From a virus: DNA of 64,000 nt. The first letter of the stretch is position 1, and each line of letters starts with the position of its first letter. Location of the stretch: positions 1 through 64,000 of IMG/VR virus record IMGVR_UViG_3300047509_000156; one strand, 5' to 3'. Positions 1 to 61,113 of the stretch are shown piece after piece. A model generated the notes under the pieces. The model saw nothing but the letters and a program-made list of their open reading frames with translations, was not told where the DNA came from and did no database searches. The position numbers and the translations under genes were made by a program.

Positions 1-31
1 GCGCAAACAACTCGACGCCGTCAAGCGGGCC

Positions 32-838
32 ATGATCGGCAAGCCCCAACCACTCGACCGCTTCTGGCTCGACCCATCCCGCCTCATGTCGGACGCCGGC
101 ATGACACCCGATCCCTGGCAGATGGACCTGCTGCGGACGCCGGACTGCTGGACGCTCTGCATAGCTGCACGCGGCGGAGGGAAGTCACAAGTAGCGGCGG
201 CGCTGGCGCTACGCAAGATCATTCTGGAGCCCAAGACGCTGGCCATCGTCATCTCCCAGAAAGAGGACCTTGCCAAGGAGTTCTTCAACGACCGCTTCCT
301 GCCGCTGTGGCGCGGCCTTGGTGAACCGCTCAAAAAGGGCAACCCTTTCGTTGCCGAGATAAAACTTTCCAATGGCAGCCGCTTCAAGGCGTACCCGCAA
401 ACCGAAGGGATTCGCGGCATCCATCCGCACCTGGCTGTCATCGACGAGGCTGCCCGTATCGATGACAAGATGTTTACAGCTATCACGGGAATGCTCGGCC
501 CCAACAACGGCAGGATCATTGCCATCTCGACTCCAGTTGGCCAGCAGGGATTCTTCTTCTATTCGTGGAAGAATGACGACCAGTACCCCGATGGCAAGGA
601 AGGTGTGCAGACGGGCAAAGTCATGTGGAAGAAGATCCGCGTGACAGCCGATATGTGCCCACGACTGACTCCGCAGTTTCTTGCCGAGGCACGTCAGCGA
701 CTCGGCGAGAGGGATTTTGCCACGGAATTCTTCTGTGCCTTCCCGACACTGATCAACCAGATGTTCTCCGATGACGATATCGAGGCCGCCTTCCGCCCCC
801 ACGACGGCACCCGACCGCTGCGTCTCAGGAGAGACTGA
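32..838 (+). CDS. terL: Terminase large subunit, ATPase domain only (frame is open to the window edge, so the true start may be upstream)
   Basis: PDPWQ adenine-binding motif, Walker A ARGGGKS, Walker B LAVIDEAA, motif III ISTP, FATEFFCAF end of the ATPase domain; no nuclease domain before the stop. Confidence 0.9.
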   Translation: MIGKPQPLDRFWLDPSRLMSDAGMTPDPWQMDLLRTPDCWTLCIAARGGGKSQVAAALALRKIILEPKTLAIVISQKEDLAKEFFNDRFLPLWRGLGEPLKKGNPFVAEIKLSNGSRFKAYPQTEGIRGIHPHLAVIDEAARIDDKMFTAITGMLGPNNGRIIAISTPVGQQGFFFYSWKNDDQYPDGKEGVQTGKVMWKKIRVTADMCPRLTPQFLAEARQRLGERDFATEFFCAFPTLINQMFSDDDIEAAFRPHDGTRPLRLRRD

Positions 839-1035
839 TGGATCGTAAGACCGCCTACCAGCAAGCGTATGCCGATCTCTTCCGCCTGATCGTCACCAGC
901 AACTGGTGCGATATCCAGCAAGAGTACCACGACCGTGTCACTCGCATGGATGCCTTGCCGGGCAGCGACCGCGACAAGACGGCATGGGGACTAGAGGTTG
1001 GCGCACTGCTCTACCAGCGTCTGGTGTATGGTTAG
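838..1035 (+). CDS. Small hypothetical protein
   Basis: TGATG stop/start overlap with the terminase ATPase gene; AGGAG upstream. Confidence 0.55.
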   Translation: MDRKTAYQQAYADLFRLIVTSNWCDIQQEYHDRVTRMDALPGSDRDKTAWGLEVGALLYQRLVYG

Positions 1036-1289
1036 AACGGTATTTGCACTTCAAGTGATATGTAGTCGGCGTACTCCTCGTATCCCAGATCGATGATGCG
1101 GTCGCGAAGCACACACAATCTCTCGTCGATCTGTTCCTTACCCTCTGGCTCACGAGGAAAGTACCTGTGGTTGATGAAGTCAAAACTCGGGTAGAGAGCG
1201 TCGAATACCGCCCTCTCTAACTGGAGGAATGTTTCATCCTCGCGGCAGAGTTTGTAGGCGGCACGATGAGTAAAGTAGCGACTGCTCAT
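1032..1289 (-). CDS. Hypothetical protein
   Basis: 85-aa ORF with GAGG RBS. Confidence 0.5.
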   Translation of the reverse strand: MSSRYFTHRAAYKLCREDETFLQLERAVFDALYPSFDFINHRYFPREPEGKEQIDERLCVLRDRIIDLGYEEYADYISLEVQIPF

Positions 1290-1557
1290 GTCAGCCTCGT
1301 TCCACAGTGGAAGCAGAAGTTGCCGTTTTCCCTCACTGCGTTATGTGTATACGGACAATTGCTTCGACGGTCCATGTCGATTGGTAACGATTGCCGGTGA
1401 CGCTCAACCACGTCGGCCAGGGCGTCAGGAAGATCGTCACTGTGGGCAGTTCTGTGACATGGGCACGGATCTCGATGCCGGTGATGCCCATTCCACCATT
1501 AGGGTCTTATCCCCAGGACGAGGCAGAGTTGCCGGCCGAATTCGAGTCCGCTGATCA

Positions 1558-2133
1558 TCAGAACAGATTCTCCACCGTCCCTGGACTGTTCCCAGTCTGA
1601 CGGAACCTTTTCCTCTCCACCTGATTGTCGCTCTCCCTGTCATCCTCGACGTTCCACCAACCTCTGCGGATCACCTCGACAACCGCCTCGAAGGCGGCAC
1701 GGCAGGTTTTGAACGGTTGAACGATACCGAGTCCACCAGCACCGACGATGTATTCCATGAGGTGTTCCGGTAAGTTGCACGGCCTATCGTTCAGACTGAT
1801 CATCGGTGATCTGGCCCAGAACCACGTCCTGTTCTGGTACTTGTGGTGCGGCCAGCGGTGCGTCGCCGCCAGCCATCCCCATCCTTTCGCCCTCATCTCG
1901 TCGCCACGGTCCAGGGCGTCGTCCGCGAGTAGCAACAGAACCTCGTTGCGGTCCTCGTCGATCATCGCCAGGAGATGTTCGCGATCCGTCGCCTTACTTC
2001 TCTGCTCCAGTTTCTTCTCGGCTATCTCACAGCGAGAGTAGAGCATCAAGATCCGTCTCTCGATGTCCCCACCGGGAATGCTGGCGTTGTCGAGTATTTC
2101 GAGGATGGCCAGTTCTTGTCTAGGAGTGATCAT
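1558..2133 (-). CDS. Hypothetical protein with divergent TIGR02996-like segment (start reassigned to MITPRQE)
   Basis: LLLLADDALDRGDEMRAKGWGW resembles the RLxLADWLxExG...A motif; ATGA overlap with the upstream gene. Confidence 0.55.
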   Translation of the reverse strand: MITPRQELAILEILDNASIPGGDIERRILMLYSRCEIAEKKLEQRSKATDREHLLAMIDEDRNEVLLLLADDALDRGDEMRAKGWGWLAATHRWPHHKYQNRTWFWARSPMISLNDRPCNLPEHLMEYIVGAGGLGIVQPFKTCRAAFEAVVEVIRRGWWNVEDDRESDNQVERKRFRQTGNSPGTVENLF

Positions 2134-2771
2134 GGCTTTTCTCGCAGGTACTTGTCTGCTTCCAGCACGGCCGCTTGCGGCGTGACGCGAGAGTTGTGAT
2201 CGTAACTGAGAAGTTCGCGCGGGCAGAATCCGTCCTGATTTATTACTCCCCAGCCGCCATCTCTCCATTGCCGTACCGACCAGCCTTTTCGTATCAGTAC
2301 GTCGAACGCCTTCTTGCTCTCGCCAGAATTCTCGGCCTCCTCGTAGCCGCTCTTGTACGCCTCCCCCACGTTATCGAGGGATAGGTCGTGGACTATCCTG
2401 GTGAGCCAGCGGATGTGCGCGAAGAGGCTGGGGATTATCTCTGTCGCAAGCCGAGCCTTGTCCGCGATCTCGACAAGGTTCCCTAATCGTGCCGTCTCCA
2501 AACGTCGGCAGGCTTCATTCCACCTTCCTTGAGACTCCGCTACCTCCTCCTCGCTCATGGGCGCCCCCGGCAGGTCGTTCGCCAGGGCCTCAGCGGCGCC
2601 TTCGCGGCGGGCACGCTCCAGGAGGGGGAGGACGGCCTTGCGGTATGCCTCAACCTGTTTCTGGAAGCCGCTTGGGAACCGCCTCGAAGATCCGGCGATG
2701 GCCATGCTGCCGAGCAAGATGAGGTCGCCCTCCAGGCGGATCATCTCCTCCGCGATCTTCTCGTTGGTCAT
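2130..2771 (-). CDS. Hypothetical protein, paralog of 60218..60832
   Basis: Shared MTNExIAxEM, VLPLLxxARxxG and LFAHIxxLTR motifs. Confidence 0.7.
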   Translation of the reverse strand: MTNEKIAEEMIRLEGDLILLGSMAIAGSSRRFPSGFQKQVEAYRKAVLPLLERARREGAAEALANDLPGAPMSEEEVAESQGRWNEACRRLETARLGNLVEIADKARLATEIIPSLFAHIRWLTRIVHDLSLDNVGEAYKSGYEEAENSGESKKAFDVLIRKGWSVRQWRDGGWGVINQDGFCPRELLSYDHNSRVTPQAAVLEADKYLREKP

Positions 2772-3319
2772 GGCTTCCTCTTCAGTCCGAAGTCCCGCTT
2801 CTTAATCTTGGCGAATTTCCCTTCTGGTCCGTGGAAGACGATCCCCTCGATGTCCTTGTCGGATAGGTAGGCGCGCAGTCCGTCGAAATTGCGTGGCACA
2901 CCGTCGAGGATCAATCCAACCGAATAGGGTACAACCTTGACCAGCGTGTGCTCGGTGTACTTCTCCGGGTTTCCCTGGATCTTTGGTCCAACCGCTTCGT
3001 AGATACCATCAGCGGGCCAGAAGGTATCAATAACATAGCGGTGTTCCTTGGCCAGGAGATCGAACGCTTCCCACAGATACTTGTCGGCCGGATCGCCTCG
3101 CTCGCACTCGACGTAACTGGCCTCATCGTAGTCGCCATCTGTCGGCTTCTGCCGCTTCATGAGAACACCGCCGTGAACGCAGACGTTGGTCCCATCCAAC
3201 TTTCGAGTCGCCACCCCGAGGCCGTCAGCGACCCACTGGCATTCCGTCTTGAGGACGTTCTTGACCGGGTGGCCTTTAATTGTCTCGTCGCGCTCGAACA
3301 TGGTTGGAATCTTCCGCAT
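2768..3319 (-). CDS. ATP-dependent RNA ligase-like nucleotidyltransferase (DUF5565/RLIG1-like); true start MRKIPT
   Basis: Motif I ATRKLDGT, motif IV IEGIVF, motif V AKIKK; AAGGAG RBS before ATG 3319; the longer ORF call runs through a tRNA. Confidence 0.75.
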   Translation of the reverse strand: MRKIPTMFERDETIKGHPVKNVLKTECQWVADGLGVATRKLDGTNVCVHGGVLMKRQKPTDGDYDEASYVECERGDPADKYLWEAFDLLAKEHRYVIDTFWPADGIYEAVGPKIQGNPEKYTEHTLVKVVPYSVGLILDGVPRNFDGLRAYLSDKDIEGIVFHGPEGKFAKIKKRDFGLKRKP

Positions 3320-3342
3320 CGATAATCTCCTTGAAATGTTAG

Positions 3343-3417
3343 TCGGAATGATTGGATTTGAACCAATGCCCTCCCGGTCCCAGGCCGGGCGCTCTAGCCA
3401 AACTGAGCTACATTCCG
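3343..3417 (-). tRNA. tRNA-Pro(UGG) with C33 instead of U33; CCA not encoded
   Basis: Cloverleaf CGGAATG/CATTCCG, D stem GCTC/GAGC, anticodon stem CCCGG/CCGGG with loop CCTGGGA, T arm ATTGG-TTCAAAT-CCAAT, C1-G72 and A73. Confidence 0.9.
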
Positions 3418-3424
3418 CATAAAA

Positions 3425-3509
3425 ACCCTGCCGAGGAGACTCTTGCGGGTCGTTACCACCAAATGACACGCCGGTAAAGAATCCGTGTCGCTGGTATCCT
3501 CGGCAGGGT
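3425..3509 (-). ncRNA. Structured intergenic RNA (three-way junction) just 5' of tRNA-Pro
   Basis: 13-bp closing stem ACCCTGCCGAGGA/TCCTCGGCAGGGT, inner GACACG/CGTGTC stem, GCAA-capped hairpin, then a U-run. Confidence 0.5.
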
Positions 3510-3520
3510 GGCTCAAGTGG

Positions 3521-5329
3521 TTAATCAAATCGATCCAGCCTTACCGTCCACACCCCGGCTGCTGTCCGTACGCGCAACAGGCAGTCGAGGCTCTTGTCGT
3601 GGCTCTGGATCGCGTACCCGTTGGCGTCTCCCTCCTCCTTGTCGGTGACGATTGCCGAGTTGGCATACGCCTCCATCGCGTGACGGATGTCGCGGTACTC
3701 ACTGCGGAGCGATTCGGGGAAAAAGGCGCCACCAATGTCCATCGTCGCCCTGGCCCCTTCGAGGGCGAACAGTGCCATCTCTGGATGGTGGGCAAACTGC
3801 TCCGGCTTTTGCCAGTGCGGCGGGCAGCGGCAGATCAGGTTCACCTTGACCCAGGATGGCGAGTGGAGCGACCACTGCTGCGGTGGCGATCCGTAGGTGT
3901 GCAAGTACCACGACACGGGGTTGCGCTGCCGCTGGTACTCGAACTTCAGTTCTTCGCTTGCTCCAGACTCCAGAGCAGCAGCCGACATATCCCACGGCGC
4001 CACGACGATCCGTTCGCTCGTCGGAATAAGAACGTCCAACCAATCCCACTGAAGTATTGGTGGCGCCTCCGCGTTGACTGCCGTCACTAGGCCATAGTAG
4101 GACGTTTGCCGGCCCGAGACGTAATACTCCAGCGATAGTGCCTCGGGTAATACCGTGTCGCGGAACTTCACCCACGTCATCGTCTGCTGAGGCAGTTCGA
4201 GGAATGACGCTCCGGTTTCCTTGGATCGCTGGATGAGGTGATCGAAGGCGCCACGGATTGTGTCCTCTCGCTGTGTTCGCGGCTTCCAGATGATTCCCTG
4301 TGGCAGGATGTCGCTCATCTTGGCAAACCGCCGCTGGAGCGCGCCGGCGGACTTCAGTTTCTCCACGACCGCGTTGCCGGCCGCGATCTGGCCTTCCGTG
4401 ATCGTCTGCGGACGTTGATAGGCGAGAGGGTGCATCTTCTGCGCCCACCGCCTCTTGATGGCGTCGAAGGTCATACCGCTCTTGATGTCGTCGAGCAGCG
4501 TCGAGATCATCGTCGAGCGAACGTGGCAGAATCCCACCGGCGCCGTGGCCACGGCGAGCCAGATCATGTTGGCGCGTCGTAATTCGTGCTTTACATCCTT
4601 AAGCCTCTGGTGGAGAGACAGGAACCACTCCGCGACGCCGTGGACCTTCTCGCTCCTCTCCAGGGAATCCGACTTGAGGACGGCAACAGCCTGCTCGACG
4701 GTGCCAAGCGAGTAGTCGGCCAGAGCGGACGAGAGCATTCCAAACTCCTCCCGCTTCTGCGCCATCATCTGCTCGGCCGTCAGGGTGGGGTGCTTGAACG
4801 GTCGCGTGTTGATCCCCGACAGGTGCGTCCACGTCCCCGTCTGCGGTATACCCCACACCTCGTCGGAGGAGAGAAAGACGCCCGTGACGCGAGCCCTGGC
4901 GACAATGCCACACATTGCCACTCCAGAGTCTTGGAAGAATGGCGGGAACCCACCGACCGCGTTATCCCACAGCACAGGCCAAGACTTCCCGTGTCCATCG
5001 ATTGTCGTCAGCCCGCCGTATCTCTCGATAAAGTGGCGACATGCCGAGCAGCAATAATGCTGCCGTGGTCCGCTATAGATGACAACTGTTGCCGGGCAGT
5101 GCTTTTGGTGTGCCTCGGCAGACGGACCAGTGCGGTCAGCGCCGCAGGTGCAGATACTGTAGGCTTTCCCTCCAGGGATACCGTGAAGGTACTCATCGAA
5201 CAAGTAACTGGCATCCGTGGCAAAGAGCGGTCCCCGTGCCGCCGCCGTCCTCTGGCGTATCAGGTTCTCGAACTGGTGGTAGGCATGGTCGCTCTCGACA
5301 CGCGCTGACATGGCGGTTTTCTCGGACAT
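3521..5329 (-). CDS. Large hypothetical phage protein (602 aa) with CxxC/His motifs
   Basis: Long ORF with AGGAG RBS; HYCCSACRHF and GFCHVRS motifs. Confidence 0.8.
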   Translation of the reverse strand: MSEKTAMSARVESDHAYHQFENLIRQRTAAARGPLFATDASYLFDEYLHGIPGGKAYSICTCGADRTGPSAEAHQKHCPATVVIYSGPRQHYCCSACRHFIERYGGLTTIDGHGKSWPVLWDNAVGGFPPFFQDSGVAMCGIVARARVTGVFLSSDEVWGIPQTGTWTHLSGINTRPFKHPTLTAEQMMAQKREEFGMLSSALADYSLGTVEQAVAVLKSDSLERSEKVHGVAEWFLSLHQRLKDVKHELRRANMIWLAVATAPVGFCHVRSTMISTLLDDIKSGMTFDAIKRRWAQKMHPLAYQRPQTITEGQIAAGNAVVEKLKSAGALQRRFAKMSDILPQGIIWKPRTQREDTIRGAFDHLIQRSKETGASFLELPQQTMTWVKFRDTVLPEALSLEYYVSGRQTSYYGLVTAVNAEAPPILQWDWLDVLIPTSERIVVAPWDMSAAALESGASEELKFEYQRQRNPVSWYLHTYGSPPQQWSLHSPSWVKVNLICRCPPHWQKPEQFAHHPEMALFALEGARATMDIGGAFFPESLRSEYRDIRHAMEAYANSAIVTDKEEGDANGYAIQSHDKSLDCLLRVRTAAGVWTVRLDRFD

Positions 5330-5368
5330 GGGGGAACTCCTGTGCGTAAGTGCGTAAATCAGAAACAG

Positions 5369-5440
5369 AGCCAGGTGGGGGAATCGAACCGCCCATCTCC
5401 GTCTTACGCTGACGGCGCCTTACCGTTGGGCCAACCAGGC
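5369..5440 (-). tRNA. tRNA-Thr(CGU)-like, atypical (A32, G33, U4-U69 mismatch, C-C mismatch in T stem)
   Basis: GCCTGGT/ACCTGGC acceptor, CCGTC-AGCGTAA-GACGG anticodon arm, GGCGG-TTCGATT-CCCCC T arm. Confidence 0.75.
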
Positions 5441-5455
5441 TTCTACACGACAGTA

Positions 5456-5483
5456 TATACGCTGGACTGGTTCGTGCGTGACA
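5456..5483 (-). promoter_or_regulatory. Repeated ECF-like promoter TGTCAC-N15-GCGTATA (copy 1, facing tRNA-Thr and its operon)
   Basis: Same motif and spacing found six times in the window. Confidence 0.75.
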
Positions 5484-5494
5484 GGAAAATCAGA

Positions 5495-5509
5495 TAGAAT
5501 TTCGGAATG
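5495..5509 (+). promoter_or_regulatory. -10 box for a leaderless transcript (TAGAAT-N6-ATG)
   Basis: No SD before ATG 5507; same geometry at 13462, 28829 and 43222. Confidence 0.6.
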
Positions 5510-6385
5510 GCCGAATACACCATCAACCCACCATGGGTCTTCGCTCAACCCGGCTTCAAGCCAGGGTTATCCTGTCCGATCTGTTGCGCCAACCTGCCAC
5601 CACTGGACGAGGACGGCAAGTCTTTCTGCTCCGTCTGCGGCACGATGCATGAGGATGCCTCTCAGAAGCGTCCGTCCAGTGTCCCCTACATCGTCGGCGT
5701 TGATCTGGGAAAACTCCGCGACCCGTCCGCTTTCGTCGCCTACAAGACTTCTGCCGTGGGAGAACAGACAGCTTACTCAGCCGTCGCTCTGGAGCGATTC
5801 GATAAGGGTACTCCTTATCCCAAGATCCGCAAGACGATAGCCAGTTGGGTATCCAGAGAGCCTCTGGATGAGGCACCTCTTGTTGTGGACGCCACAGGCG
5901 TAGGAGGACCCGTCGTCGATGAGATGCAGGAGATGCCCGAACTTCGCGGTCGCATCGTCCCCGTGACGATCACTCAGGGTTTAGCAATATCCTGGGATAA
6001 GACGACGAAGATGTGGCACGTCGCCAAGAGGCACCTGGCCTCGGTGATTCAGGCCACCCTCTCCAGCGGACGGCTCATCATCCCTCCCGCCGACGAGAGT
6101 TGGACGCCCCAGGAAAAGGGTTCGTGGACACGGATAATTAAGGTTCTTGAGGAGGAGTTCAAGAACTTCACCATCAAGATCACGACTCACGGAAACGAGA
6201 CTATGTCCGCATGGCGAGACAACGTGGACAACGATGACATTCTCATGGCAACCGCAACGTGTCTGTGGTGGTCCGAGTACCGCCAGTTGGCCCAGGCTGT
6301 CAGTTTCGCCAGCGGTGCTCCAACAATCAGTCCCGACGCCTTCTCTCTGCCCGGCATGACGGACCCCAGGACGATTCGGATATGA
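5507..6385 (+). CDS. Terminase large subunit, RNase H-like nuclease domain as a separate gene, with N-terminal Zn finger
   Basis: YIVGVDLGKLRDPSAF, LVVDATGVGGPVVD and DDILMA acidic motifs of the terminase nuclease; CPICC...CSVC. Confidence 0.85.
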   Translation: MAEYTINPPWVFAQPGFKPGLSCPICCANLPPLDEDGKSFCSVCGTMHEDASQKRPSSVPYIVGVDLGKLRDPSAFVAYKTSAVGEQTAYSAVALERFDKGTPYPKIRKTIASWVSREPLDEAPLVVDATGVGGPVVDEMQEMPELRGRIVPVTITQGLAISWDKTTKMWHVAKRHLASVIQATLSSGRLIIPPADESWTPQEKGSWTRIIKVLEEEFKNFTIKITTHGNETMSAWRDNVDNDDILMATATCLWWSEYRQLAQAVSFASGAPTISPDAFSLPGMTDPRTIRI

Positions 6386-6424
6386 GACACACCGACGCCG
6401 AGCCGTTCTTCGTGGCGCTGATGC

Positions 6425-6697
6425 TCAACCTGATCCTGGTCGCTCTTGGGCTGGCTGGACTGGGGTTGGAGCATCTAAGTCGAACTCTTCTGACTCTATC
6501 GGGAGTTCCCCAGCGCGAATGACGTTCTGTGGTCCCGGAGATCCATCGCCGTACATGATCAGGTCCTCGTCGATAAACTGCGCCAGTAGCGCAATCGCCG
6601 CCTCGTCGCGTATCATTAGACGAGGGTTACGATTGATCTCCTGACGCAATCGCTTGTAGGCGTTGCGGGCCATACGCTGGATCACTTCTCCGGTCAC
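6425..6697 (-). CDS. Hypothetical protein
   Basis: GGAG RBS; member of a minus-strand operon. Confidence 0.5.
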   Translation of the reverse strand: MTGEVIQRMARNAYKRLRQEINRNPRLMIRDEAAIALLAQFIDEDLIMYGDGSPGPQNVIRAGELPIESEEFDLDAPTPVQPAQERPGSG

Positions 6698-6698
6698 T

Positions 6699-6902
6699 TT
6701 AACTCCTTGGTACTCTCGACAGTCTCAGCGCCAAGGCGGTTGCCGAAGCAGGCGTTTCTTCGCCGACGTTAGCGGTGTAGTTCCTGTACTCAACGCTGCC
6801 GCCACAGCCGCGAAGTTCGCACTCGCACCAGGCACAAATGCCGTGTCGAAGGTGGTAGAGTTGCTTCCCACATCGCGTGCATTCTTCAAGTCCTTCGTCC
6901 AT
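6699..6902 (-). CDS. Small Cys-rich (Zn ribbon) protein
   Basis: CTRC...CAWC. Confidence 0.5.
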   Translation of the reverse strand: MDEGLEECTRCGKQLYHLRHGICAWCECELRGCGGSVEYRNYTANVGEETPASATALALRLSRVPRS

Positions 6903-7106
6903 TTACCACTCCGATGTTGTTTCGGCGAGCAAGACAACTGGCGTGTAGGTGTCGTGCCCCGACTGGCATTCCCAGCGGACGCTGACGACACGCCACTGGC
7001 GATCGTCGATGCGGATAGTGTGTCCTGTCAGCGGCACGGCCAACATCGACAGGATACAGTCTTCCTTCTTTGATAGTTGGTGGAAGATGACGTGGACGGG
7101 GATCAT
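6903..7106 (-). CDS. Hypothetical protein
   Basis: AGGAGG RBS. Confidence 0.55.
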   Translation of the reverse strand: MIPVHVIFHQLSKKEDCILSMLAVPLTGHTIRIDDRQWRVVSVRWECQSGHDTYTPVVLLAETTSEW

Positions 7107-7279
7107 GTGGCCTCCTTGGGCGTATCGTTCTTGTGGATCATGCGCAGGTAGTGCGTGACGAGTTGCTTGTGGATACGAACCATAGCAGCATCGTCATCGC
7201 GAGACTGGGCGTGTTCTAGCTCCCTCTCCAGCCTTTCGGCAATCTTGATGTCGTCCTGATTTCCCTTGAGTGGACTCAC
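7103..7279 (-). CDS. 58-aa helical protein coupled to the giant sigma gene (below the ORF-track cutoff)
   Basis: GTGA overlap with the stop at 7276; MSPLKGNQDDIKIAERLERELEHAQ...; ATGA overlap with the next gene. Confidence 0.55.
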   Translation of the reverse strand: MSPLKGNQDDIKIAERLERELEHAQSRDDDAAMVRIHKQLVTHYLRMIHKNDTPKEAT

Positions 7280-10200
7280 TGCTGTGCCTCCAGAAGTTTC
7301 CTGAGTTGCTTCCGCGCCCGCTCCCGTGTCTTGCGGTAGGCGTCCTTGGCTTTCTTCTGTTCTTCACCGGCCATTTCTTCGATGTGTTTCGGGTAGTCTC
7401 CCTGCCCGGTGAGGTCGAAGTTAATCACGTCCTGGTGTTCTTGCGGCAGTTTGGCGATGACAGGCTTCAGTCGCTGGATCTCCTCGTGGGTCGCCTCCTT
7501 CTCCTCGCTGCCGTGATCGGTCGCCGCCGGATCAATCCTTCCCTCTCCCTCTTCGCCATATCCTTCGATACTTGACGCTTTCTCTCTCTTGTTTTTGCGT
7601 CCTAGGTCACGGGTGCGACTGACGACCGCCTTGTGGACAAACCCCTTCCAGTCGTCCCGCGAGGGATCGAATCTTCCGTCACGGATTGCCTTGAGCAGAG
7701 TCAGCGAGGCTTCCTGAGCGATGTCGTCTGCCTCGCTGCCGCTCTTGCTGATGCTTCGCGCCCACTTCGTTGCCGATCTTAGTACGTCCTGGTGGTGTTC
7801 GTTGAAGAACGTGTCGGCGATCTGTTGCCGCCGCTTTGTTTCCTCCGGAGAAGGTTCTGCTGTATCCGCTGGTTTTACCGCTTCTTCGGTAGGCTTTTCC
7901 ACCGCCTCGCCTTCCGGCATGGTCGCCGCCTCGGCCTGTTTCGCCAGAGGGACGCTTTTCTTCTTCATGGCGGCGACGCGATCGGAGACGGACTTCTTCG
8001 GCTTTGCCGCCGTCTCGGTTGCTGGTGTCTCTGTTCGCAACTTACCTTCAATGTCGGAGAGTTGCTGCTCGTACTCGTGTATCTGGTTGAGACGATCATC
8101 GTATCCCTGTCCTACCTTGCCAGCAGGTCTTTTGCCGGACGGGAATGACCTCTCGAATTCAGCCTTGGCATCAGCCAAGTTTTTGGCGGATCGCTCTCTC
8201 GTCGCCTTTAGACGCTCAGTCGTAGGCGACGAGGCGGTAGTCGCTGGTGCCTCGGTCGGCGTTTCTTTTGCCGTATCTCCTTGCTTCTTCATATCCACGA
8301 ACATCAACTGGCCCTTGTCCGATGGGATACCACGGTTCCAGTTGGGAGTCGTCTTTCCCGTGTGTCCGGCCTGAAGAACCAACTTATCATCCGTCTGCCA
8401 CTTCAAGAGGAGATCGTGAACCTGATTTTCGCTGATCTCCGGGTGCTTCTCGCGGATAGCGTCCACGATATCGGGTATCGGCACTGAGGCGCCATTGAGT
8501 TTCCTCTCGATATCATCAAAGGCGACTCTAGCCGTCTTCTCGATGGCCGGCTCCTGCTCCGGTGTTATCGCTGCTGTCTCTGGTTGCTGCGTGGCTTCGG
8601 TACTGCCGTTAGTAGCAGGCACAGCGTCTCTGCCTGTCGGAGGCGTTGCGTTCTGCCGTTCTGCAAGTCTCTTTTTCGCTTTCTCGATTATCCCTTGCGT
8701 CTTTTTACTTAAAGAAGAATATCCTTCCCTGGCCCACATGGCAGATTCCACGAGATCGCCAGTACGTACCGGCCTTCCTTCAGCAGAGGCACATTCCTGT
8801 GCAATGGCAGAAGCGAGATTGGCGTCTACGCCCATCTTTTTCGCTGTCTTGCCGATCTTGTCCGACATTGCATCGTCGATAGCCCCGGGCTTTTCTTGCT
8901 CGATTGCGCCGCCTGACGGGGCCTCTACCCCAGCCTCTCGTTTGGCGGTAAGGGCAGCAGGTTCTGCTTTTGTCTCCGTCGCTGGGGAAGTATTACCGAC
9001 AGGTTTGACAGCAGCCGGAGCAATCTGTGTCTCGCTGGCAGGCTTTGCCTCGGCTGCGGCTGGTTCGCTGGTGGCAGGAGCGGCTTCTGGTTTAGCTTCT
9101 GCTGGCGGCGTCTCGTTTACTAGTCCGACTGCCGCCTCTTTTTTTGGCTCTGCCGGCTTTTCTTCGGCCATATCCTTGACCATGCCACGATCACGCCATC
9201 GCTGCATTCCTGCTTCACTTGCCGGATATTCACCACTTTCAGTTTCCCAACTATTAGGACCAGTACGGACGTAAACTGTACCTTCTCCCTCCTCGCCACG
9301 ATGCTTGACGCGGACACGCTCCTCTGCCGGCTTCTGTTCAACCCGCTGCGGTGCCGCAGGAGTCTGTTCAGTTGGCGCTGTCGTGGCTGGCGTCTCAGTT
9401 GATGCACCTTCTGGCGGAGTATTTTCGCCCGGCGTCTCTGGCTGCTTCTCCTGTACCGCAGGTTCCGTCGCCACAGCTTCCTGCTTCACTTCCGACTCGG
9501 CTGGTGTAGCCTTGGCGGCAGGTTTGGCTTCCTCTGCCGGAGTATCGACGGGTGTCTGATCGACGGCGGCGGCAGTGTCCTCGGGTGTGGCTTGCTGTCC
9601 CGACTCAACTTTACCCTTGTTCTTTGGTTTCAACTCGCGACCTGCTGGCGGTCCTTTTACCTTTGGCTTTCCTTCGATCTCGCCTTGCGCCTGTTCCTTG
9701 GCAGATTGCCAGTCTGTTTCTGCCTGCTTGATAGCCTGCCTTTTTGCTTTCGCATCTCCTCCAGCAGAGCCAAGTCTCTTCTTGACTTCTGCTTGAACCT
9801 CTTCCTGATTCGGATGAAACCCTGGGCTTTCCTGTCCTTGCATGACGGCGATTACGTCTCGCAAGAACTCCTCTTTGGCTTGCGGATTCATCTCTGCGAC
9901 AGGTTCTGATGGCGTTTCTGCACTGGCCGTTGACGCTTCGGCTGGTTTAGCCTCTGGCGTTACGGTCGGCTTTTCCTTGCGGGTGAGTTTGCGTGGCGTA
10001 AACTCTCGCTTTGTGCCAGTTTCACGATGCGTTACCGCCACTTCTTCTGGTGTGCCAACTGTCGCTGTCATACCTCCTGTTGCCAGATTGGCTTCTTTGG
10101 TTTGATTGCGCAACTCGTTCTTAATCAGGCTAGCCAGCGCCTCCTTGTTGTGCGCTTCTGCCTCCTTGTTGCCCTGCTGCTCGTTCTGCTTGATCGTCTC

Positions 10201-15560: not shown

Positions 15561-17696
15561 TCAACTCGACGTGGTAAACGTGGCCCAGACAGTGCTTCCT
15601 GTCGTGTTCACGAACAACCGCGACGTGGTCGAGTTGCCGCCCGTGTTCAGACAGAGACTGCCCTGTGCGGCAGTAAACGTCGGCACTGTCGAACTGACGT
15701 AAATGCCGAACGCGGCCGTGCTGGAGATCAGGACTGCTGCCGTGGTGGCCGCGTTTGATGGCGCCACGTTGGAACAGATCGTCACCGTGCCGGCCGTGCC
15801 GGCACTGGTGCCGCCGTTGATCGTCACCGATCCGCCGCTGCCCGACGTGTTCCCGCCCGCACCGCCAGCGATGGCCACTGCCCCGCCGGTACCCGAACCG
15901 GCGCCTGGTCCTCCGGCGCCTGCCGTAAGGGTAAGGTTCCCGCCAGAGGATGAACCAGAGCCACGGCCACCGACCATACTGGCTGCACCACCGGCCGAGT
16001 TACCGGCCGTTCCTGCCCCGCCAGCGACGGCTACAGCACCACCAGCGCCCGATGTCGCTCCACCCGCTCCGCCCGTCATACTGACTGCGCCGCCGGCGCC
16101 TGTTGCTCCACCTGCTCCGCCTGTCAGGCTTGCCAGTCCGCCAGCAACGGCGGTTGCGCCTGCACCGGCAGCCATGATAAGTGTGCCGCCGCCGGCGCCC
16201 GTTCCGGCGACATTTGTACCGGCCGCCCCGGCCGTGATCGCCACATTGCCTCCAGCACCTGAAGTTCCGGCGCCCGATGTTGCCCCGCCGGCCCCGGCGA
16301 GAATCGTCACTGCTCCACCGGCACCACCCGTTCCTGTCGCCGAACCGGCACCGCCGACGCCAGCCGTGAGTTGGCCTGACCCGCCGATGCCACCGGCACC
16401 AGTGGAACTTGACGCACCACCGGCACCGCCGATCAAGGCTGCCGTGCCGGCCTGGGCTGCCGCCGAGGAACCCGCGACGGTGCCCGAGGCGCCGGCCGTG
16501 ATTGTCACCGCACCACCAGCAGCGCTGGCCTGGCCGCCCGTGGCCGAGCAGGCACCGCCGGCCCCACCTGTGATCGTCACTGCGCCACCAGCGCCAGTGA
16601 TACCAGACGTGGCTGATGAGCAGGCGCCACCAGCACCGCCTGTGATCGATACTGCCGAACCGGCACCACCGATACCGGCCGCTCCTGTCGTTGCTCCGCC
16701 GGCAACGCCAGTGATCGAGATTGTGCCACCAGCGCCACCAGTTCCTGTGGTCGCCGTGCCCGTCGTGCCGCAAGTTAGAGTAATGGCACCGGAAGCCGAG
16801 GCAACGGTTGTCGTGGCGTTGGAAGAGGCGCCCGTCGTGATCGTACAGGCACCACCAGCACCGGATGTTGCACCACCTGCTCCACCCGTCAGGCTGGCGG
16901 CACCGCCGACGCCGGTAGCGCCGCCGGCGCCGGCTGTAGTGGTGCTGGCGCCACCGGCTGCCGAACCCTGGCCGGCACCGCCGACGAGGGAAGCCGCCCC
17001 GCCGGCAGCGTTACCGTTGACGCCGGCACCACCAGTAAGACTCACAGCGCCGCCGGCACCCGAGGTAGCACCACCCGCCGCACCAGCGATGACGACGGCG
17101 CCGCCAGCGGTAGAAGTCGTCGAGGCCCCACCTGTAATGTTGAACGCCTCGCCGCCGGTCGAGGAGATAGCCTGCATCAGGACGCCGCCAGCGGCAGCAG
17201 ACGACGTGATCTTGACGCCAGTGGCGGCACTGCCAGCGCTGGCGGAAACTGCAAACGCCGGGTTCGTCGTGCCGTTGGGACCAACGACAAAGGCGTTTGC
17301 CGACGCCGAGGTGATTGTCTGGGCCACGTTGGTTGTCTGGAGAATGCCGGACTTCAGTGCTCCGGTATTGTCCAGGGTGTACACGTCGAAGAAGCCGCCC
17401 TCGCCCGTCGTGATGAGATAATCAACCGTCGTGGCATCCGTCGTCGCCGCCATCAGGATGTCGCCGGCGCCCAGAGGTAGGTTGACGATGAACAGTTGCT
17501 CGTTTGGTCCCAGTTGCGCCCGCACGATCTGACGTTCCGTCAGGGCACCGGCCGGGTCGATGGAGATGAGAACCGTCTCCGTCAGCGATCCCGACTTGTT
17601 CTGGAGGATCAGCGTGACCTGATTGGGGTAGTTGATGACCCCGGTATAAAGTGCGGTATCGGCGACGGCAAGTTGACCCGAAGCGAGTACAGACAC
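15561..17696 (-). CDS. Gly/Ala-rich repeat fibre-like virion protein (GGAVTITGGAG repeats); start reassigned to GTG 17696
   Basis: About 25 GGx(V/A)x(I/L)xxGxG units; GAGGTG RBS. Confidence 0.8.
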   Translation of the reverse strand: MSVLASGQLAVADTALYTGVINYPNQVTLILQNKSGSLTETVLISIDPAGALTERQIVRAQLGPNEQLFIVNLPLGAGDILMAATTDATTVDYLITTGEGGFFDVYTLDNTGALKSGILQTTNVAQTITSASANAFVVGPNGTTNPAFAVSASAGSAATGVKITSSAAAGGVLMQAISSTGGEAFNITGGASTTSTAGGAVVIAGAAGGATSGAGGAVSLTGGAGVNGNAAGGAASLVGGAGQGSAAGGASTTTAGAGGATGVGGAASLTGGAGGATSGAGGACTITTGASSNATTTVASASGAITLTCGTTGTATTGTGGAGGTISITGVAGGATTGAAGIGGAGSAVSITGGAGGACSSATSGITGAGGAVTITGGAGGACSATGGQASAAGGAVTITAGASGTVAGSSAAAQAGTAALIGGAGGASSSTGAGGIGGSGQLTAGVGGAGSATGTGGAGGAVTILAGAGGATSGAGTSGAGGNVAITAGAAGTNVAGTGAGGGTLIMAAGAGATAVAGGLASLTGGAGGATGAGGAVSMTGGAGGATSGAGGAVAVAGGAGTAGNSAGGAASMVGGRGSGSSSGGNLTLTAGAGGPGAGSGTGGAVAIAGGAGGNTSGSGGSVTINGGTSAGTAGTVTICSNVAPSNAATTAAVLISSTAAFGIYVSSTVPTFTAAQGSLCLNTGGNSTTSRLFVNTTGSTVWATFTTSS

Positions 17697-17713
17697 AATA
17701 TCACCTCGATTAT

Positions 17714-17929
17714 TTAGGAGGTTCGATACCACTCGGGCAGCGTGCCAACAGCGGCCTCTGCCGATTTCGTTTGCCGCTCCCCGATTCCCCAGAACTCGAC
17801 TTCCTTGACCGTGCCATCGTCCCCGTAGACGATTTTCTTTACGCGCGGGCAGGTACCGCCGTGCAGGCAGCCGCACCAGCGGCAGGCGCCTTCGAGATCA
17901 AGACCGGGAGTCAGGCTGTCGGCGTTCAT
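17714..17929 (-). CDS. Small CxxC protein
   Basis: CRWCGCLHGGTCPRVK; ATGA coupling. Confidence 0.55.
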   Translation of the reverse strand: MNADSLTPGLDLEGACRWCGCLHGGTCPRVKKIVYGDDGTVKEVEFWGIGERQTKSAEAAVGTLPEWYRTS

Positions 17930-18285: not shown

Positions 18286-18695
18286 GTCAGGCTCAAAACC
18301 ACGTTGACTGGGGGATCGGGCGGCACGTTCTGCGTCGGGATCGTCAGCGAGTTGGATGTCGCCGGTGCCGAGGAGAGGTTCGTCGCGCCGTTGACGGCCA
18401 CTACTGTGGCAACCAGCACGTCACCGCCTGCCAGCGTGACGCCAGGATTGGCGGCATCCCAGGTTGAAGAGTAGCCTGACGCATCTCCGGATGCCGACTG
18501 GGGCACAGTGACAGGCGAACCGGCGGCGACGCCGTTACGCTGCCAGGAAACGCCATAACTCGTCACTCCCGAGGAGTCTGAAGCGTTCCACGTCACCTTG
18601 GGGTTGATGGCCATGTGATGATGCCTCTTGTGGTAGTGCAGCCGCAGGCGAACATGTCGCGGCGGTTTGGGTGGACGGTGCAATGCTGCGTCCAT
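18282..18695 (-). CDS. Fibronectin type III/Ig-like virion protein
   Basis: VTWNAS...VTSYGV...TVVAVN...SS...PPDPPVNV pattern; directly after the portal gene. Confidence 0.6.
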   Translation of the reverse strand: MDAALHRPPKPPRHVRLRLHYHKRHHHMAINPKVTWNASDSSGVTSYGVSWQRNGVAAGSPVTVPQSASGDASGYSSTWDAANPGVTLAGGDVLVATVVAVNGATNLSSAPATSNSLTIPTQNVPPDPPVNVVLSLT

Positions 18696-20278
18696 CAGGG
18701 ATGGTATCCATTGCCGTTGATACGAGCAAATTTCCGCGTATATGCAGACTTTCCGCCCTGCGTCGGTACAACCGGCGAGCCGCTATTCGTTGGCCGGGTC
18801 CTCTCGACATTACCCGCCTGCCGCATCCGGTTAGGCTGGGAGTTACCTGCCGTGCCTTCGAGGAGCGACTGGAGCTGAGCGTCTTCGGGAGACTCCTCCT
18901 TGGCCGGCGGTTCTCCCGCCTGCTGGACCTGGCCGGGCATTATCTGCCCTTCGCTGCCACCTTCCATTCCTGGCTTCTGGGCAAAGATGGCGCCGTTGAT
19001 GGCTCGCTCCTCGCCCCAGTCCTCGTCGATCTTCTTCAGCTTCCGCAAGTGGCGGATCTCGTTGATGGTCCTGATCCCCGCCTGGAGATCCGTGTTAATC
19101 TGCCTCTCCCTCAACTCCTCGTCGTCGATGGGTTTGGGCTCGTACTCGGCGAAGTAGTTAAAGCCGTAGAACGGCCAGACAAGCGAGAGATTGTCAGCGT
19201 CGGCTAATTGTTGCAGCAGTGGCATCAGGGTGAAGAGGTTGAACTGTTTCAGGGCCGCGTAGAGGATCGCGTAACTCGTGTCCTCGTTCTGGAAGGCCAG
19301 TTGGCGAGAGACGCCAAAGATGCTCATGACGAAGGACATGAGTTGCTTCCAACTCTCCACCCAGCCCATTTCGATGTCTGTTTCTCCGTAGGACTTCATC
19401 GTTAATCCAGGCGAAAGGACGACGGTACTTCCCGTCTTCCACGGCCCGGAGTACATTTGACGCAATTCGTGCTTCAGGCGGTCGAGTTCGGCGCCACGGG
19501 GGAAGAGGATCTGCGGGTCGGCCTCGACGACGTTGTCCGGTTTGGCCGCGTTCTGAGTGCGAGCAAATCTTCCCTGCTCGATCGAATTAAGCGTGTCCAA
19601 AGGCAAGGAACAGGCTGTCAGAGGCGAGAGTCCTTCCTGATCGGTGAGCGGATGAGGGAATCGCGTCGCCGTGATATAGCGCGCCGGCACGACGACGCCG
19701 CCTTGGTTCCAGGCGCCGGGCATCAGGTTTAGTGGACCTGGCCAGAAAGGCTGGATGCGGTAGGCGCCATCGGGATAGACGGATGATGGAGCAATAGGCT
19801 GGTAGGTCCCCGTGGGTACGTTCCACTGCTCGTGCGGCCTGCCGAAACCGTCTTTCACCTGCCAGATGAGCGAGGTGCCGGTTAACTCCAACTGCTGTAC
19901 CCGTCGTCGCCTGAGCGTGGCCCCTGTCTCCTTGGGGTTGGGGTGGTTAAAGACGCGGCAGAGGTCATGGCTCCTTGGCAGCGCCTCGCGGTGTTCGAGG
20001 TCGTTGCCCATCCTGGCTTCCTCTTCCCACTGGTAGAGGCGCAGGGAAGCAGCGGCAGCCTGGTCCATCAGTACCTTGATGGCTACGTAGACGGCGCCGA
20101 TGTCGCGGAAACTTTCCTTGAGGTGGTCGCTCCACCAGTTGACGGGGGCGGGAGAACGGCGGGCGGCGAGATAGTTCTCCCGTGCCATCACGTCGGCAGG
20201 CGAGCCTTCACCGGCCATCTCGGAGACTGGCTGATGGTAGACGGCGGAGAACAGGCCCTGGTAGGAAGGTTTGGCCAT
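18695..20278 (-). CDS. Portal protein (HK97-like)
   Basis: VYVAIKVL, PNPKET, LELTG, GLSPL, IFGVS, TINEIR motifs; 527 aa. Confidence 0.9.
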   Translation of the reverse strand: MAKPSYQGLFSAVYHQPVSEMAGEGSPADVMARENYLAARRSPAPVNWWSDHLKESFRDIGAVYVAIKVLMDQAAAASLRLYQWEEEARMGNDLEHREALPRSHDLCRVFNHPNPKETGATLRRRRVQQLELTGTSLIWQVKDGFGRPHEQWNVPTGTYQPIAPSSVYPDGAYRIQPFWPGPLNLMPGAWNQGGVVVPARYITATRFPHPLTDQEGLSPLTACSLPLDTLNSIEQGRFARTQNAAKPDNVVEADPQILFPRGAELDRLKHELRQMYSGPWKTGSTVVLSPGLTMKSYGETDIEMGWVESWKQLMSFVMSIFGVSRQLAFQNEDTSYAILYAALKQFNLFTLMPLLQQLADADNLSLVWPFYGFNYFAEYEPKPIDDEELRERQINTDLQAGIRTINEIRHLRKLKKIDEDWGEERAINGAIFAQKPGMEGGSEGQIMPGQVQQAGEPPAKEESPEDAQLQSLLEGTAGNSQPNRMRQAGNVERTRPTNSGSPVVPTQGGKSAYTRKFARINGNGYHP

Positions 20279-54138: not shown

Positions 54139-54438
54139 CTACTCCGGTATGACGATGACTTGTTTCGATGGCACCACGACGCCGCCTTCCGCCCATGCGC
54201 CGGGAAGATAACTGGCAGGCCAGCCGGGGAACTCCTTGATCCTCCAGGCACCGTCAGGATAGAGCGGCGACGGTTCGATATAGGTGGCGCATTCTTTTGG
54301 GATGTGGCAAACTCTCAGCAACCGTCCGAATCCATCCTTGACGTTCCAGAGAAGCAGTTTGCCTGTCTGTTTTTCTTTCTCGGGAAATGCCCATCCAAAG
54401 AGACAGGCGATCGTCGATAGGAATACTCGTCTGATCAT
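54139..54438 (-). CDS. Tat-like leader fused to a portal-derived segment (99 aa)
   Basis: MIRRVFL; 34/66 ungapped identity to the portal at 18695..20278; AGGAG RBS. Confidence 0.85.
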   Translation of the reverse strand: MIRRVFLSTIACLFGWAFPEKEKQTGKLLLWNVKDGFGRLLRVCHIPKECATYIEPSPLYPDGAWRIKEFPGWPASYLPGAWAEGGVVVPSKQVIVIPE

Positions 54439-54656
54439 GTTGACTCCTGCCAATGTTTGTCGATTGGTTTGAGTTTACGCAGGCGACGTATTTCATTGAT
54501 GGTGAGCGGCCCCGTCTGAAGATCAGGAGCGAAACAGATCATCTTGGCGCATCGTCTGCTTGTTTGTCGTGGTTTCTTTGGCTGTGGCGTCTTCTTGACG
54601 AGGAGCGACAACCCGGTAAGGCCAATAAGAGAAGCAAGAAAGTTTCGCCGGATCAT
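54435..54656 (-). CDS. Tat-like leader fused to a portal crown-derived peptide (73 aa)
   Basis: MIRRNFL plus hydrophobic stretch; 19/27 ungapped identity to portal DLQAGIRTINEIRHLRKLKKIDEDWGE; GGAGG RBS. Confidence 0.85.
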   Translation of the reverse strand: MIRRNFLASLIGLTGLSLLVKKTPQPKKPRQTSRRCAKMICFAPDLQTGPLTINEIRRLRKLKPIDKHWQEST

Positions 54657-60217: not shown

Positions 60218-60832
60218 TTATGTTGGTTGTTCCATGATGGCGTTACCAATGGCCGTGCCGCCGCCGAATTGTTCCTGCTGCATCTTCCACGCTACCTCGG
60301 CACACCTCTTCCGCTCCATTGTTGTGCCGAAGTTCAGCCCATCGTTGATTCCCTTTTCGCGTCCCTTCTCGAATCCGTGCTGGTACTGGTCGAGCGACCC
60401 GTCCTCCCTGGAGTCGCGGAGCAGGCGGGTCAAAAAGTCGATGTGGGCGAAGAGGTCATTGACGCTGGCGAATACGTATTCTCGGCTCATGCGGATCGAC
60501 CAACCACGGTCATTTTGTACGCGCACGTCGTCCTGCACCTTCTTCCACGCCAGCCGCGCCGATTCGAGCGCCTCGTCGGAAAGAGGATCGCCGGCCACGT
60601 CCAGCGACAGAGCGTCCTGCATACCCGCCTCGCGAGCCTCTTGGAGCAACGGCAGAACTTGACCGATCAGGCTTTCAGCCTCACCTCTGGCAATCGATTC
60701 AACCAGGAATGCCTTGATTTCAATGGCGCCGACGCGGATACCGTAAACATGATCCTGCTCGCCGCCGTTGGCCATACGGTCACGACACTGTACCTTTACC
60801 ATCTCCTGGGCGATCTGCTCGTTCGTCTTCAT
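60218..60832 (-). CDS. Hypothetical protein, paralog of 2130..2771
   Basis: Shared motifs with 2130..2771; GGAGG RBS. Confidence 0.7.
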   Translation of the reverse strand: MKTNEQIAQEMVKVQCRDRMANGGEQDHVYGIRVGAIEIKAFLVESIARGEAESLIGQVLPLLQEAREAGMQDALSLDVAGDPLSDEALESARLAWKKVQDDVRVQNDRGWSIRMSREYVFASVNDLFAHIDFLTRLLRDSREDGSLDQYQHGFEKGREKGINDGLNFGTTMERKRCAEVAWKMQQEQFGGGTAIGNAIMEQPT

Positions 60833-61113
60833 GATCTATCTCCTCCGCTGGCAAGACAGCGGCGTATCGACTGGTACGACGTGTGGTACTTATTACCGAT
60901 CGCCTCCAGCGTGGCACCTTGATCGCGCATAAGACGCATATCAGCCACGTCGGCAGGGGTGAATCGCGAGCGGCTCTTGTTGTTGCCGTCGCGAGCGCAG
61001 GCCGGCATGGTGGCGGCGCGATCGTCGTACTCTGACTGACAGCCGGCACAGATCCGCAGCGGTGCCGGGCAGATGCGTTTGCCGCACCATGTACACCCGT
61101 ACGGTTCGTTCAT
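60829..61113 (-). CDS. Zn finger plus HTH DNA-binding protein (start MNEPYG)
   Basis: CTWC..CAGC; GATLEAIGNKYHTSYQSIRR. Confidence 0.65.
   Translation of the reverse strand: MNEPYGCTWCGKRICPAPLRICAGCQSEYDDRAATMPACARDGNNKSRSRFTPADVADMRLMRDQGATLEAIGNKYHTSYQSIRRCLASGGDRS

Follow-up and report, generated by a model that had tools for sequence, protein, structure and literature searches.

Separate genes for the ATPase and nuclease of the large terminase subunit in an uncultured phage and in its relatives

In tailed phages and herpesviruses, the large terminase subunit (TerL) is by textbook accounts a single chain that combines motor and nuclease, and it serves as the standard marker for phage detection and phylogeny. 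In the uncultured phage represented by the metagenome-assembled IMG/VR contig IMGVR_UViG_3300047509_000156 (106,481 bp), we found instead two intact terminase genes, an ATPase gene (terL-A) and a nuclease gene (terL-N), and no single polypeptide carrying both domains. Between the stop codon of the first (836-838) and the new start codon of the second (5507) lie 4.7 kb; positions refer to the first 64 kb (64,000 nucleotides) of the contig, which we call the window, unless stated otherwise. A sequence-only reading of the window had proposed that TerL is split in this way, and the proposal is confirmed by sequence motifs, by alignments to the TerL of Thermus phage Riverbug and by the fold predicted for the nuclease. 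The arrangement as a whole is probably best explained by a TerL that is split in its interdomain linker throughout a large clade, with the gene pair pulled apart in this phage and the enzyme working as two chains.

The open reading frame (ORF) 32-838 of terL-A begins at the first ATG in the window and matched Pfam Terminase_6N (PF03237; E 1e-7, 32.2 bits against a cut-off of 22) and phrog_7579, labelled 'terminase large subunit' (E 2.5e-33). The phrog_7579 profile is 239 positions long and thus describes ATPase-only proteins. The same ORF is 36% identical to residues 12-249 of the 417-residue one-chain Riverbug TerL (E 7e-45). The N-terminal additional-strand-conserved-E (ASCE) P-loop ATPase expected of a TerL is present, with an intact Walker A motif (AARGGGKS, nucleotides 164-187), Walker B motif (LAVIDEAA, 431-454) and coupling motif (ISTP, 524-535). 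A C-terminal RPL motif occupies nucleotides 812-826 and the protein ends in ...TRPLRLRRD, so that the stop is only seven residues (PLRLRRD) past the end of the Riverbug alignment, in agreement with the short tail that had been described for an ATPase ending at 838. At its other end, the frame is open to base 2 of the window. The contig has direct terminal repeats, its last ~95 bases repeating the first ~95, and since its end directly repeats its start the frame runs on upstream over the contig end, where 51 further codons without a stop were found. The true start of terL-A is therefore probably some 30-45 codons before position 32, which corrects the start at 32.

The product of terL-N aligns by BLASTP, over residues 61-254, to residues 250-399 of Riverbug TerL, exactly where the ATPase alignment stops. 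Since the two alignments abut on Riverbug TerL, the break falls in the interdomain linker. The protein also matched phrog_27743, labelled 'unknown function', with an E value of 1e-28. D66, D128 and D243/D244 occupy invariant or near-invariant columns in an alignment of 31 family sequences, and the corresponding catalytic Asp motifs are encoded at nucleotides 5693-5713, 5882-5905 and 6227-6244. An AlphaFold2 (AF2) model of the protein had a mean predicted local distance difference test score (pLDDT) of 79.9, with a core above 90, and its best matches in the Protein Data Bank (PDB) by Foldseek were TerL nuclease domains, such as that of G20c (5M1F; E 9e-8, target-normalised template modelling score (TM-score) 0.69). 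T4 gp17, P74-26, SPP1 G2P and human cytomegalovirus (HCMV) UL89 were further fold matches, and 8DGC was among the weaker ones. Judged by these columns and this model, the protein is the RNase H-like nuclease of a TerL, with its three catalytic acidic residues.

Pfam PF17289 scored below threshold on terL-N, though it is recorded for terL-N homologues; PF17289 and PF20441 both miss the gene in the genome, while it is detected by hidden Markov models (HMMs) built for the clade and by the fold search. Searches of the genome, rated 100% complete, with the clade HMMs and Pfam PF03237, PF17289, PF03354, PF20441 and PF04466 gave no further terminase ATPase or nuclease. An intact terL elsewhere in the genome, which would have made the two genes mere remnants in the sequence-only reading, was thus not found.

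Relatives were collected by an alignment-based scan that gave 160 loci, 80 on viral contigs and 80 in bacterial or archaeal genomes, and the two domains were mapped locus by locus using HMMs made from the sequences of these loci. Single-protein scans of viral contigs had returned no close relative, whereas the alignment-based scan succeeded. Among 50,697 cultured-phage records, no match was found by megablast of window positions 1-7200, nor by tblastn with the nuclease protein and P0024, a typical family member; distant one-chain TerLs of cultured phages were reached by the ATPase half only. The two domains are encoded by separate ORFs on the same strand in 77 of the 78 viral loci that show both (fused in one) and in 75 of 77 such genomic loci (fused in two), that is, in 152 of 155 altogether. 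Consistent with this, 119 of the best 120 ATPase homologues are ATPase-only proteins of 231-302 residues, in a comparison for which proteins of up to 469 residues were eligible. The nuclease homologues mostly have 180-260 residues, with only a few of them ahead of the first catalytic motif, and the ATPase genes of relatives stop just past a conserved (D/E)-V-(K/E)-P-L-F motif. Hosts on the genomic records include Planctomycetota (among them Gemmata), Acidobacteriota, Gemmatimonadota, Chloroflexota, Bacillota, Pseudomonadota, Actinomycetota and the archaeon Methanothrix. The survey of related phages that had been suggested thus found the same split in nearly all of them, and the idea that it is special to this phage is refuted. 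On the evidence of these gene arrangements, the split is a clade-wide TerL variant, and among the loci examined the halves lie furthest apart in this phage.

The gene junctions of relatives are typically ATGA or GTGA (4-nucleotide overlap) or TGATG or TAATG (1-nucleotide overlap). They occur in all three relative frames, including an in-frame stop followed by an immediate new start, which points to two translationally coupled genes and fits reinitiation. A programmed frameshift that would make one chain in the family was considered and rejected, as start/stop overlaps are found in all three relative frames. Over 151 split loci the gap between the two domains, from ATPase end to nuclease start, had a median of 60 nucleotides (interquartile range 35-115); it exceeded 300 nucleotides in 16 loci and 1 kb in two, and the 4.7 kb of the window is the largest.

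Some relatives carry additional genes at or near this junction. One small same-strand gene is found there in L007, L008, L033, L072, L056 and L030, and four are found in L006. The product of one of these four (L006:9462-9773, plus strand) is 45% identical to that of an ORF of the phage studied here, at genome positions 65124-65516 just outside the window, so that junction cargo of this kind comes from a common pool of accessory genes. In a Planctomycetota metagenome-assembled genome (MAG; CAVYEC010000003.1), locus L087:3890-9623 has one TerL-ATPase gene followed by seven tandem same-strand paralogues of a stand-alone nuclease, all with catalytic Asp motifs, the last one frameshifted. Locus L104 of the same MAG has an ATPase and at least four nuclease-domain copies. 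ATPase ORFs of ~930-1060 residues with a fragmented ATPase match were seen at L007:6412-9588, L104:4179-6980 and in P0278, and these likely contain inteins.

The closest relative of the window is L005, with 38% identity in the ATPase, 42% in the nuclease (zinc ribbon included) and 55% in the portal protein. Its gene order, on one strand, is ATPase, nuclease, portal and MuF-like gene. The window has its portal gene (18695-20278) and MuF-like gene (15561-17876) on the minus strand, 12 kb from the nuclease gene, so that in comparison with L005 the whole packaging/head module has been rearranged in this lineage. Location in a packaging module adjoining the portal gene, another hallmark of TerL, was accordingly not found in the window. 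The L005 portal additionally matches a short ORF at window positions 54139-54453. The nuclease subunit of L005 (L005:9953-11713, plus strand) has 586 residues, with ~340 extra C-terminal residues ahead of the portal gene.

At its N terminus terL-N carries a zinc ribbon of the form CPIC...CSVC (CxxC...CxxC; residues 21-50, nucleotides 5573-5638), and it shares the start 'MAEY' with its nearest homologue, P0002. The sequence-only reading had noted this zinc finger as an addition to the separated nuclease. The finger is indeed present; as a trait tied to separation it does not hold, since relatives with adjacent genes (L005, L056-58 and L065) carry a zinc ribbon of the same type, and it is thus not an adaptation to gene separation. 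Only the 4.7-kb antisense block and the missing translational coupling set this phage apart.

These comparisons suggest the following model. The phage belongs to a large TerL clade of the Terminase_6N/6C type, nearest to the TerLs of Thermus and Meiothermus phages, whose enzyme is divided at the interdomain linker between two genes, mostly adjacent and translationally coupled. The ATPase subunit ends just after a conserved x-P-L-(F) and the nuclease subunit begins a few residues ahead of the first strand of its fold. In the present lineage the pair has probably been pulled apart, with a lineage-specific leftward operon between the halves and a 65-residue ORF in the coupled position. The two proteins would assemble non-covalently on the portal of the procapsid, where the ATPase ring could translocate DNA and the free nuclease subunit could be recruited to cut concatemers. 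Because coupling is lost and an operon intervenes, terL-N must be transcribed and translated on its own. The largest distance among the loci, together with this loss of coupling, argues for chains working in trans, and a complete genome that tolerates full uncoupling argues that covalent linkage and co-translation are dispensable in the clade. The two-chain packaging motor that had been suggested from the window is, on present comparisons, the best reading; it is strongly backed by comparative data, separate genes being the rule in this TerL clade.

Several points weigh against this model. Mutual binding of the two proteins and a packaging role of the nuclease are putative. The 4.7-kb distance comes from one metagenome contig, which is not the case for the split itself. 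Upstream of terL-N we found only a TAGAAT 6 nucleotides before the ATG and saw neither a -35 box nor a Shine-Dalgarno sequence, and a promoter scan gave no match; leaderless expression of the gene is possible, and the leaderless promoter of its own that had been assigned to the nuclease could not be verified. Finally, in a quick maximum-likelihood tree of 123 ATPase domains the window lies near L009, L005 and Planctomycetota prophages, and one-chain forms (Riverbug/MMP17, P0162, P0084, P0088, P0090 and L150/L156) are scattered at at least four places among split forms, with weak support. As the support is weak and the outgroups used (T5-like phages and Ackermannviridae) sit on long branches, we draw no direction of fission or fusion from this tree.

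The nuclease-like protein might have been co-opted for a different transaction on DNA, or, by analogy with the phi29-type ATPase, terL-A might package DNA unaided while a different enzyme does the cutting. The run of seven nuclease paralogues behind one ATPase gene in a Planctomycetota genome does hint at more than a 1:1 partner, terL-A and terL-N are uncoupled and differently transcribed here, the nuclease bears an extra zinc ribbon, and one MAG locus (L107, searched with one query) has a nuclease without a detected ATPase. We nevertheless consider this unlikely, given that the catalytic triad is kept, that in ~150 relatives the nuclease gene immediately follows the ATPase gene, to which it is coupled, that the genome has no other detected terminase nuclease, and that the assembly closes on itself, suggesting that concatemer cutting is needed. 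A misjoined 4.7-kb block between genes that are adjacent in the real phage appears less likely still. Such an artefact could arise in a metagenome-assembled contig, and the distance is the largest among ~150 loci. However, the GC content, 53-63% in the region, is even across both the ATPase-side and the nuclease-side junctions of the insert, and no repeats are found there. Within the block are a promoter-like motif of the phage's own and a gene whose paralogue lies at another site of the same genome. A different small ORF is coupled to the ATPase stop, and the rearrangement extends to the wider packaging/head module. Even if the block were misjoined, the genes would still be separate.

Rejoining of the halves by a group I or II intron, a split intein or recoding would be in keeping with the many introns and inteins that terL houses in other phages (PMC12880540, PMC7156551). 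It is highly improbable here, with the intervening genes on the opposite strand and relatives having a stop and a fresh start at the same point. Candidate elements were looked for and rejected: the ATPase has too short a tail to hold an N-intein, the nuclease N terminus lacks HN-C/S/T, and no Hint or intein Pfam match was obtained. An Rfam search of positions 1-7500, which covers described families only, returned at E<=1 just two tRNAs and one chance microRNA match. The absence of an intron or intein linking the halves, stated in the sequence-only reading, thus agrees with the Rfam, motif and Pfam checks. We find it equally implausible that both ORFs are decaying remnants while another terminase packages the DNA; nothing beyond the odd layout speaks for it, whereas the motifs are all intact and the clade HMMs and five Pfam terminase families revealed no further TerL ATPase or nuclease in the genome, which is rated 100% complete. 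The clade-wide, linker-split TerL acting as two chains accordingly remains the preferred explanation.

The split had also been connected with evasion of terminase-sensing defence and with 'portal decoys'. Avs1-3 sense TerL, and a structure of Avs3 with TerL exists (PMC11564622; PDB 8DGC). KpAvs2 has been predicted, and shown by pull-down, to bind the TerL ATPase domain (PMC11564622), so the split need not hide TerL. Moreover, the split is old, spanning many bacterial and archaeal phyla, and was therefore not created by an arms race of this phage. A link of the split to Avs evasion or portal decoys is not supported, and evasion, to which we give a low probability, is not needed to explain the arrangement. 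A broader proposal is that two-chain TerL is widespread, that its nuclease is independently regulated, dosed or duplicated, and that the separation may also blunt sensors such as Avs3 that read both domains. Separate transcription here and the seven tandem paralogues in Planctomycetota suggest independent control and duplication of the nuclease, yet as a whole we regard this proposal as doubtful.

The two terminase genes and the features between them are listed in Table 1.

Table 1. Features of the terminase region of the window.
Feature	Position	Strand	Basis
terL-A, large-terminase ATPase subunit gene	1..838	+	Pfam, PHROG, Riverbug alignment, motifs
65-aa ORF, TGATG-coupled to the ATPase stop	838..1035	+	sequence
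Distal ORFs of the leftward operon: 1032-1289 (85 aa), 1558-2268 (236 aa), 2130-2771 (213 aa)	1032..2771	-	ORF list
RNA-ligase-like gene, ~183 aa	2768..3319	-	phrog_14301 'RNA ligase' E 8e-38; weak Pfam RLIG1
tRNA-Pro (UGG)	3342..3417	-	ARAGORN; Rfam RF00005 65.6 bits
602-aa protein	3521..5329	-	phrog_1735 E 1e-84; PF26675 (precomputed domain column of the homologue search)
tRNA-Thr (CGU), first gene of the leftward operon	5368..5440	-	ARAGORN; Rfam 38.9 bits
Promoter-like motif GTCACA-N15-CGTAT, one mismatch, pointing left into tRNA-Thr	5457..5482	-	pattern search
terL-N, large-terminase nuclease subunit gene, 292 aa	5507..6385	+	BLASTP, phrog_27743, family alignment, AF2/Foldseek

The block between the halves had been described as mostly opposite-strand, with two tRNAs and an RNA ligase, and this description is borne out by ARAGORN, Rfam and phrog_14301. 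None of the genes of the block has a homologue in the 160 related loci, and the block is thus lineage-specific cargo. The 65-residue ORF sits where relatives have their nuclease gene; neither this ORF nor the three distal ORFs of the leftward operon had a family match in Pfam, PHROG or NCBIfam. The 213-residue ORF has a paralogue on the minus strand at genome positions 60221-60835 (E 9e-11). The start of the RNA-ligase-like gene is most likely the Met at 3319, because a longer ORF, to 3469, runs through tRNA-Pro. The promoter-like motif ahead of tRNA-Thr is one that is repeated in the genome of this phage. An excisable element was considered and rejected, since there are no flanking direct or inverted repeats at the insert and no recombinase-like family match within it.

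The 602-residue protein belongs to a very large family (910 homologues; 475 cultured-phage records). Its AF2 model has a pLDDT of 88; we obtained no PDB sequence match, no Foldseek match and no Atlas lead, and VIA-align gave no convincing match (best Z 5.6, helical part only). A ligase gene adjoins homologues of this protein in other phages, a 'DNA ligase' between TerL and portal in Pseudomonas phage phiH1 and RtcB in Rhizobium phage RHph_X66, and the 602-residue gene in the window is likewise accompanied by an RNA-ligase-like gene. One family member carries Pfam Intein_splicing.

Separation of the two activities onto different proteins across a large clade is relevant to the positioning and control of the nuclease with respect to the ATPase ring and portal. 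As the extreme case, with genes that are not even co-translated, this phage provides a natural system for studying assembly in trans. The nuclease half is annotated as 'unknown function' by PHROG and as 'hypothetical' by IMG, and pipelines expecting a TerL of 400-600 residues will mis-score such genomes. We found no description of a two-gene TerL in the full-text literature searched, the coverage of which is incomplete.

The TerLs of Riverbug, Meiothermus phage MMP17, G20c, P74-26 and T4 (gp17) have, like the enzyme described here, an ASCE ATPase bearing Walker A, Walker B and coupling motifs and an RNase H-like nuclease with three acidic residues, in collinear order. In contrast to one-chain TerLs of the Terminase_6N/6C type, the linker is cut here and in ~150 relatives, and each gene has its own start and stop. 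A terminase gene is likewise divided in herpesviruses, where UL15 consists of two exons separated by an intron of a few kb with opposite-strand genes. UL15 is spliced to give one protein and is interrupted inside the ATPase, whereas here two proteins are made and the domain linker is the point of division. ATPases of the phi29 gp16 type package without a covalently attached active nuclease; in phi29, concatemers need not be cut and the C-terminal domain is vestigial. Unlike these, the phage studied here retains an intact nuclease as a separate gene.

The terL genes of Twort, Jug phages and cyanophage Mic1 are interrupted by group I introns or inteins (PMC12880540, PMC7156551, PMC13729910). As in these phages, the terminase coding sequence lies in pieces with foreign DNA between them. 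There, splicing at the RNA or protein level restores a single chain, while here no splicing element was found and the insert is an antisense operon. The RNA polymerase of N4-like phages is encoded by one gene, by two adjacent genes or by two genes spaced by unrelated genes (PMC5418858). Although it is a different enzyme, with subunits known to assemble, it presents the same series as TerL does here, from one chain to adjacent and then to spaced genes.

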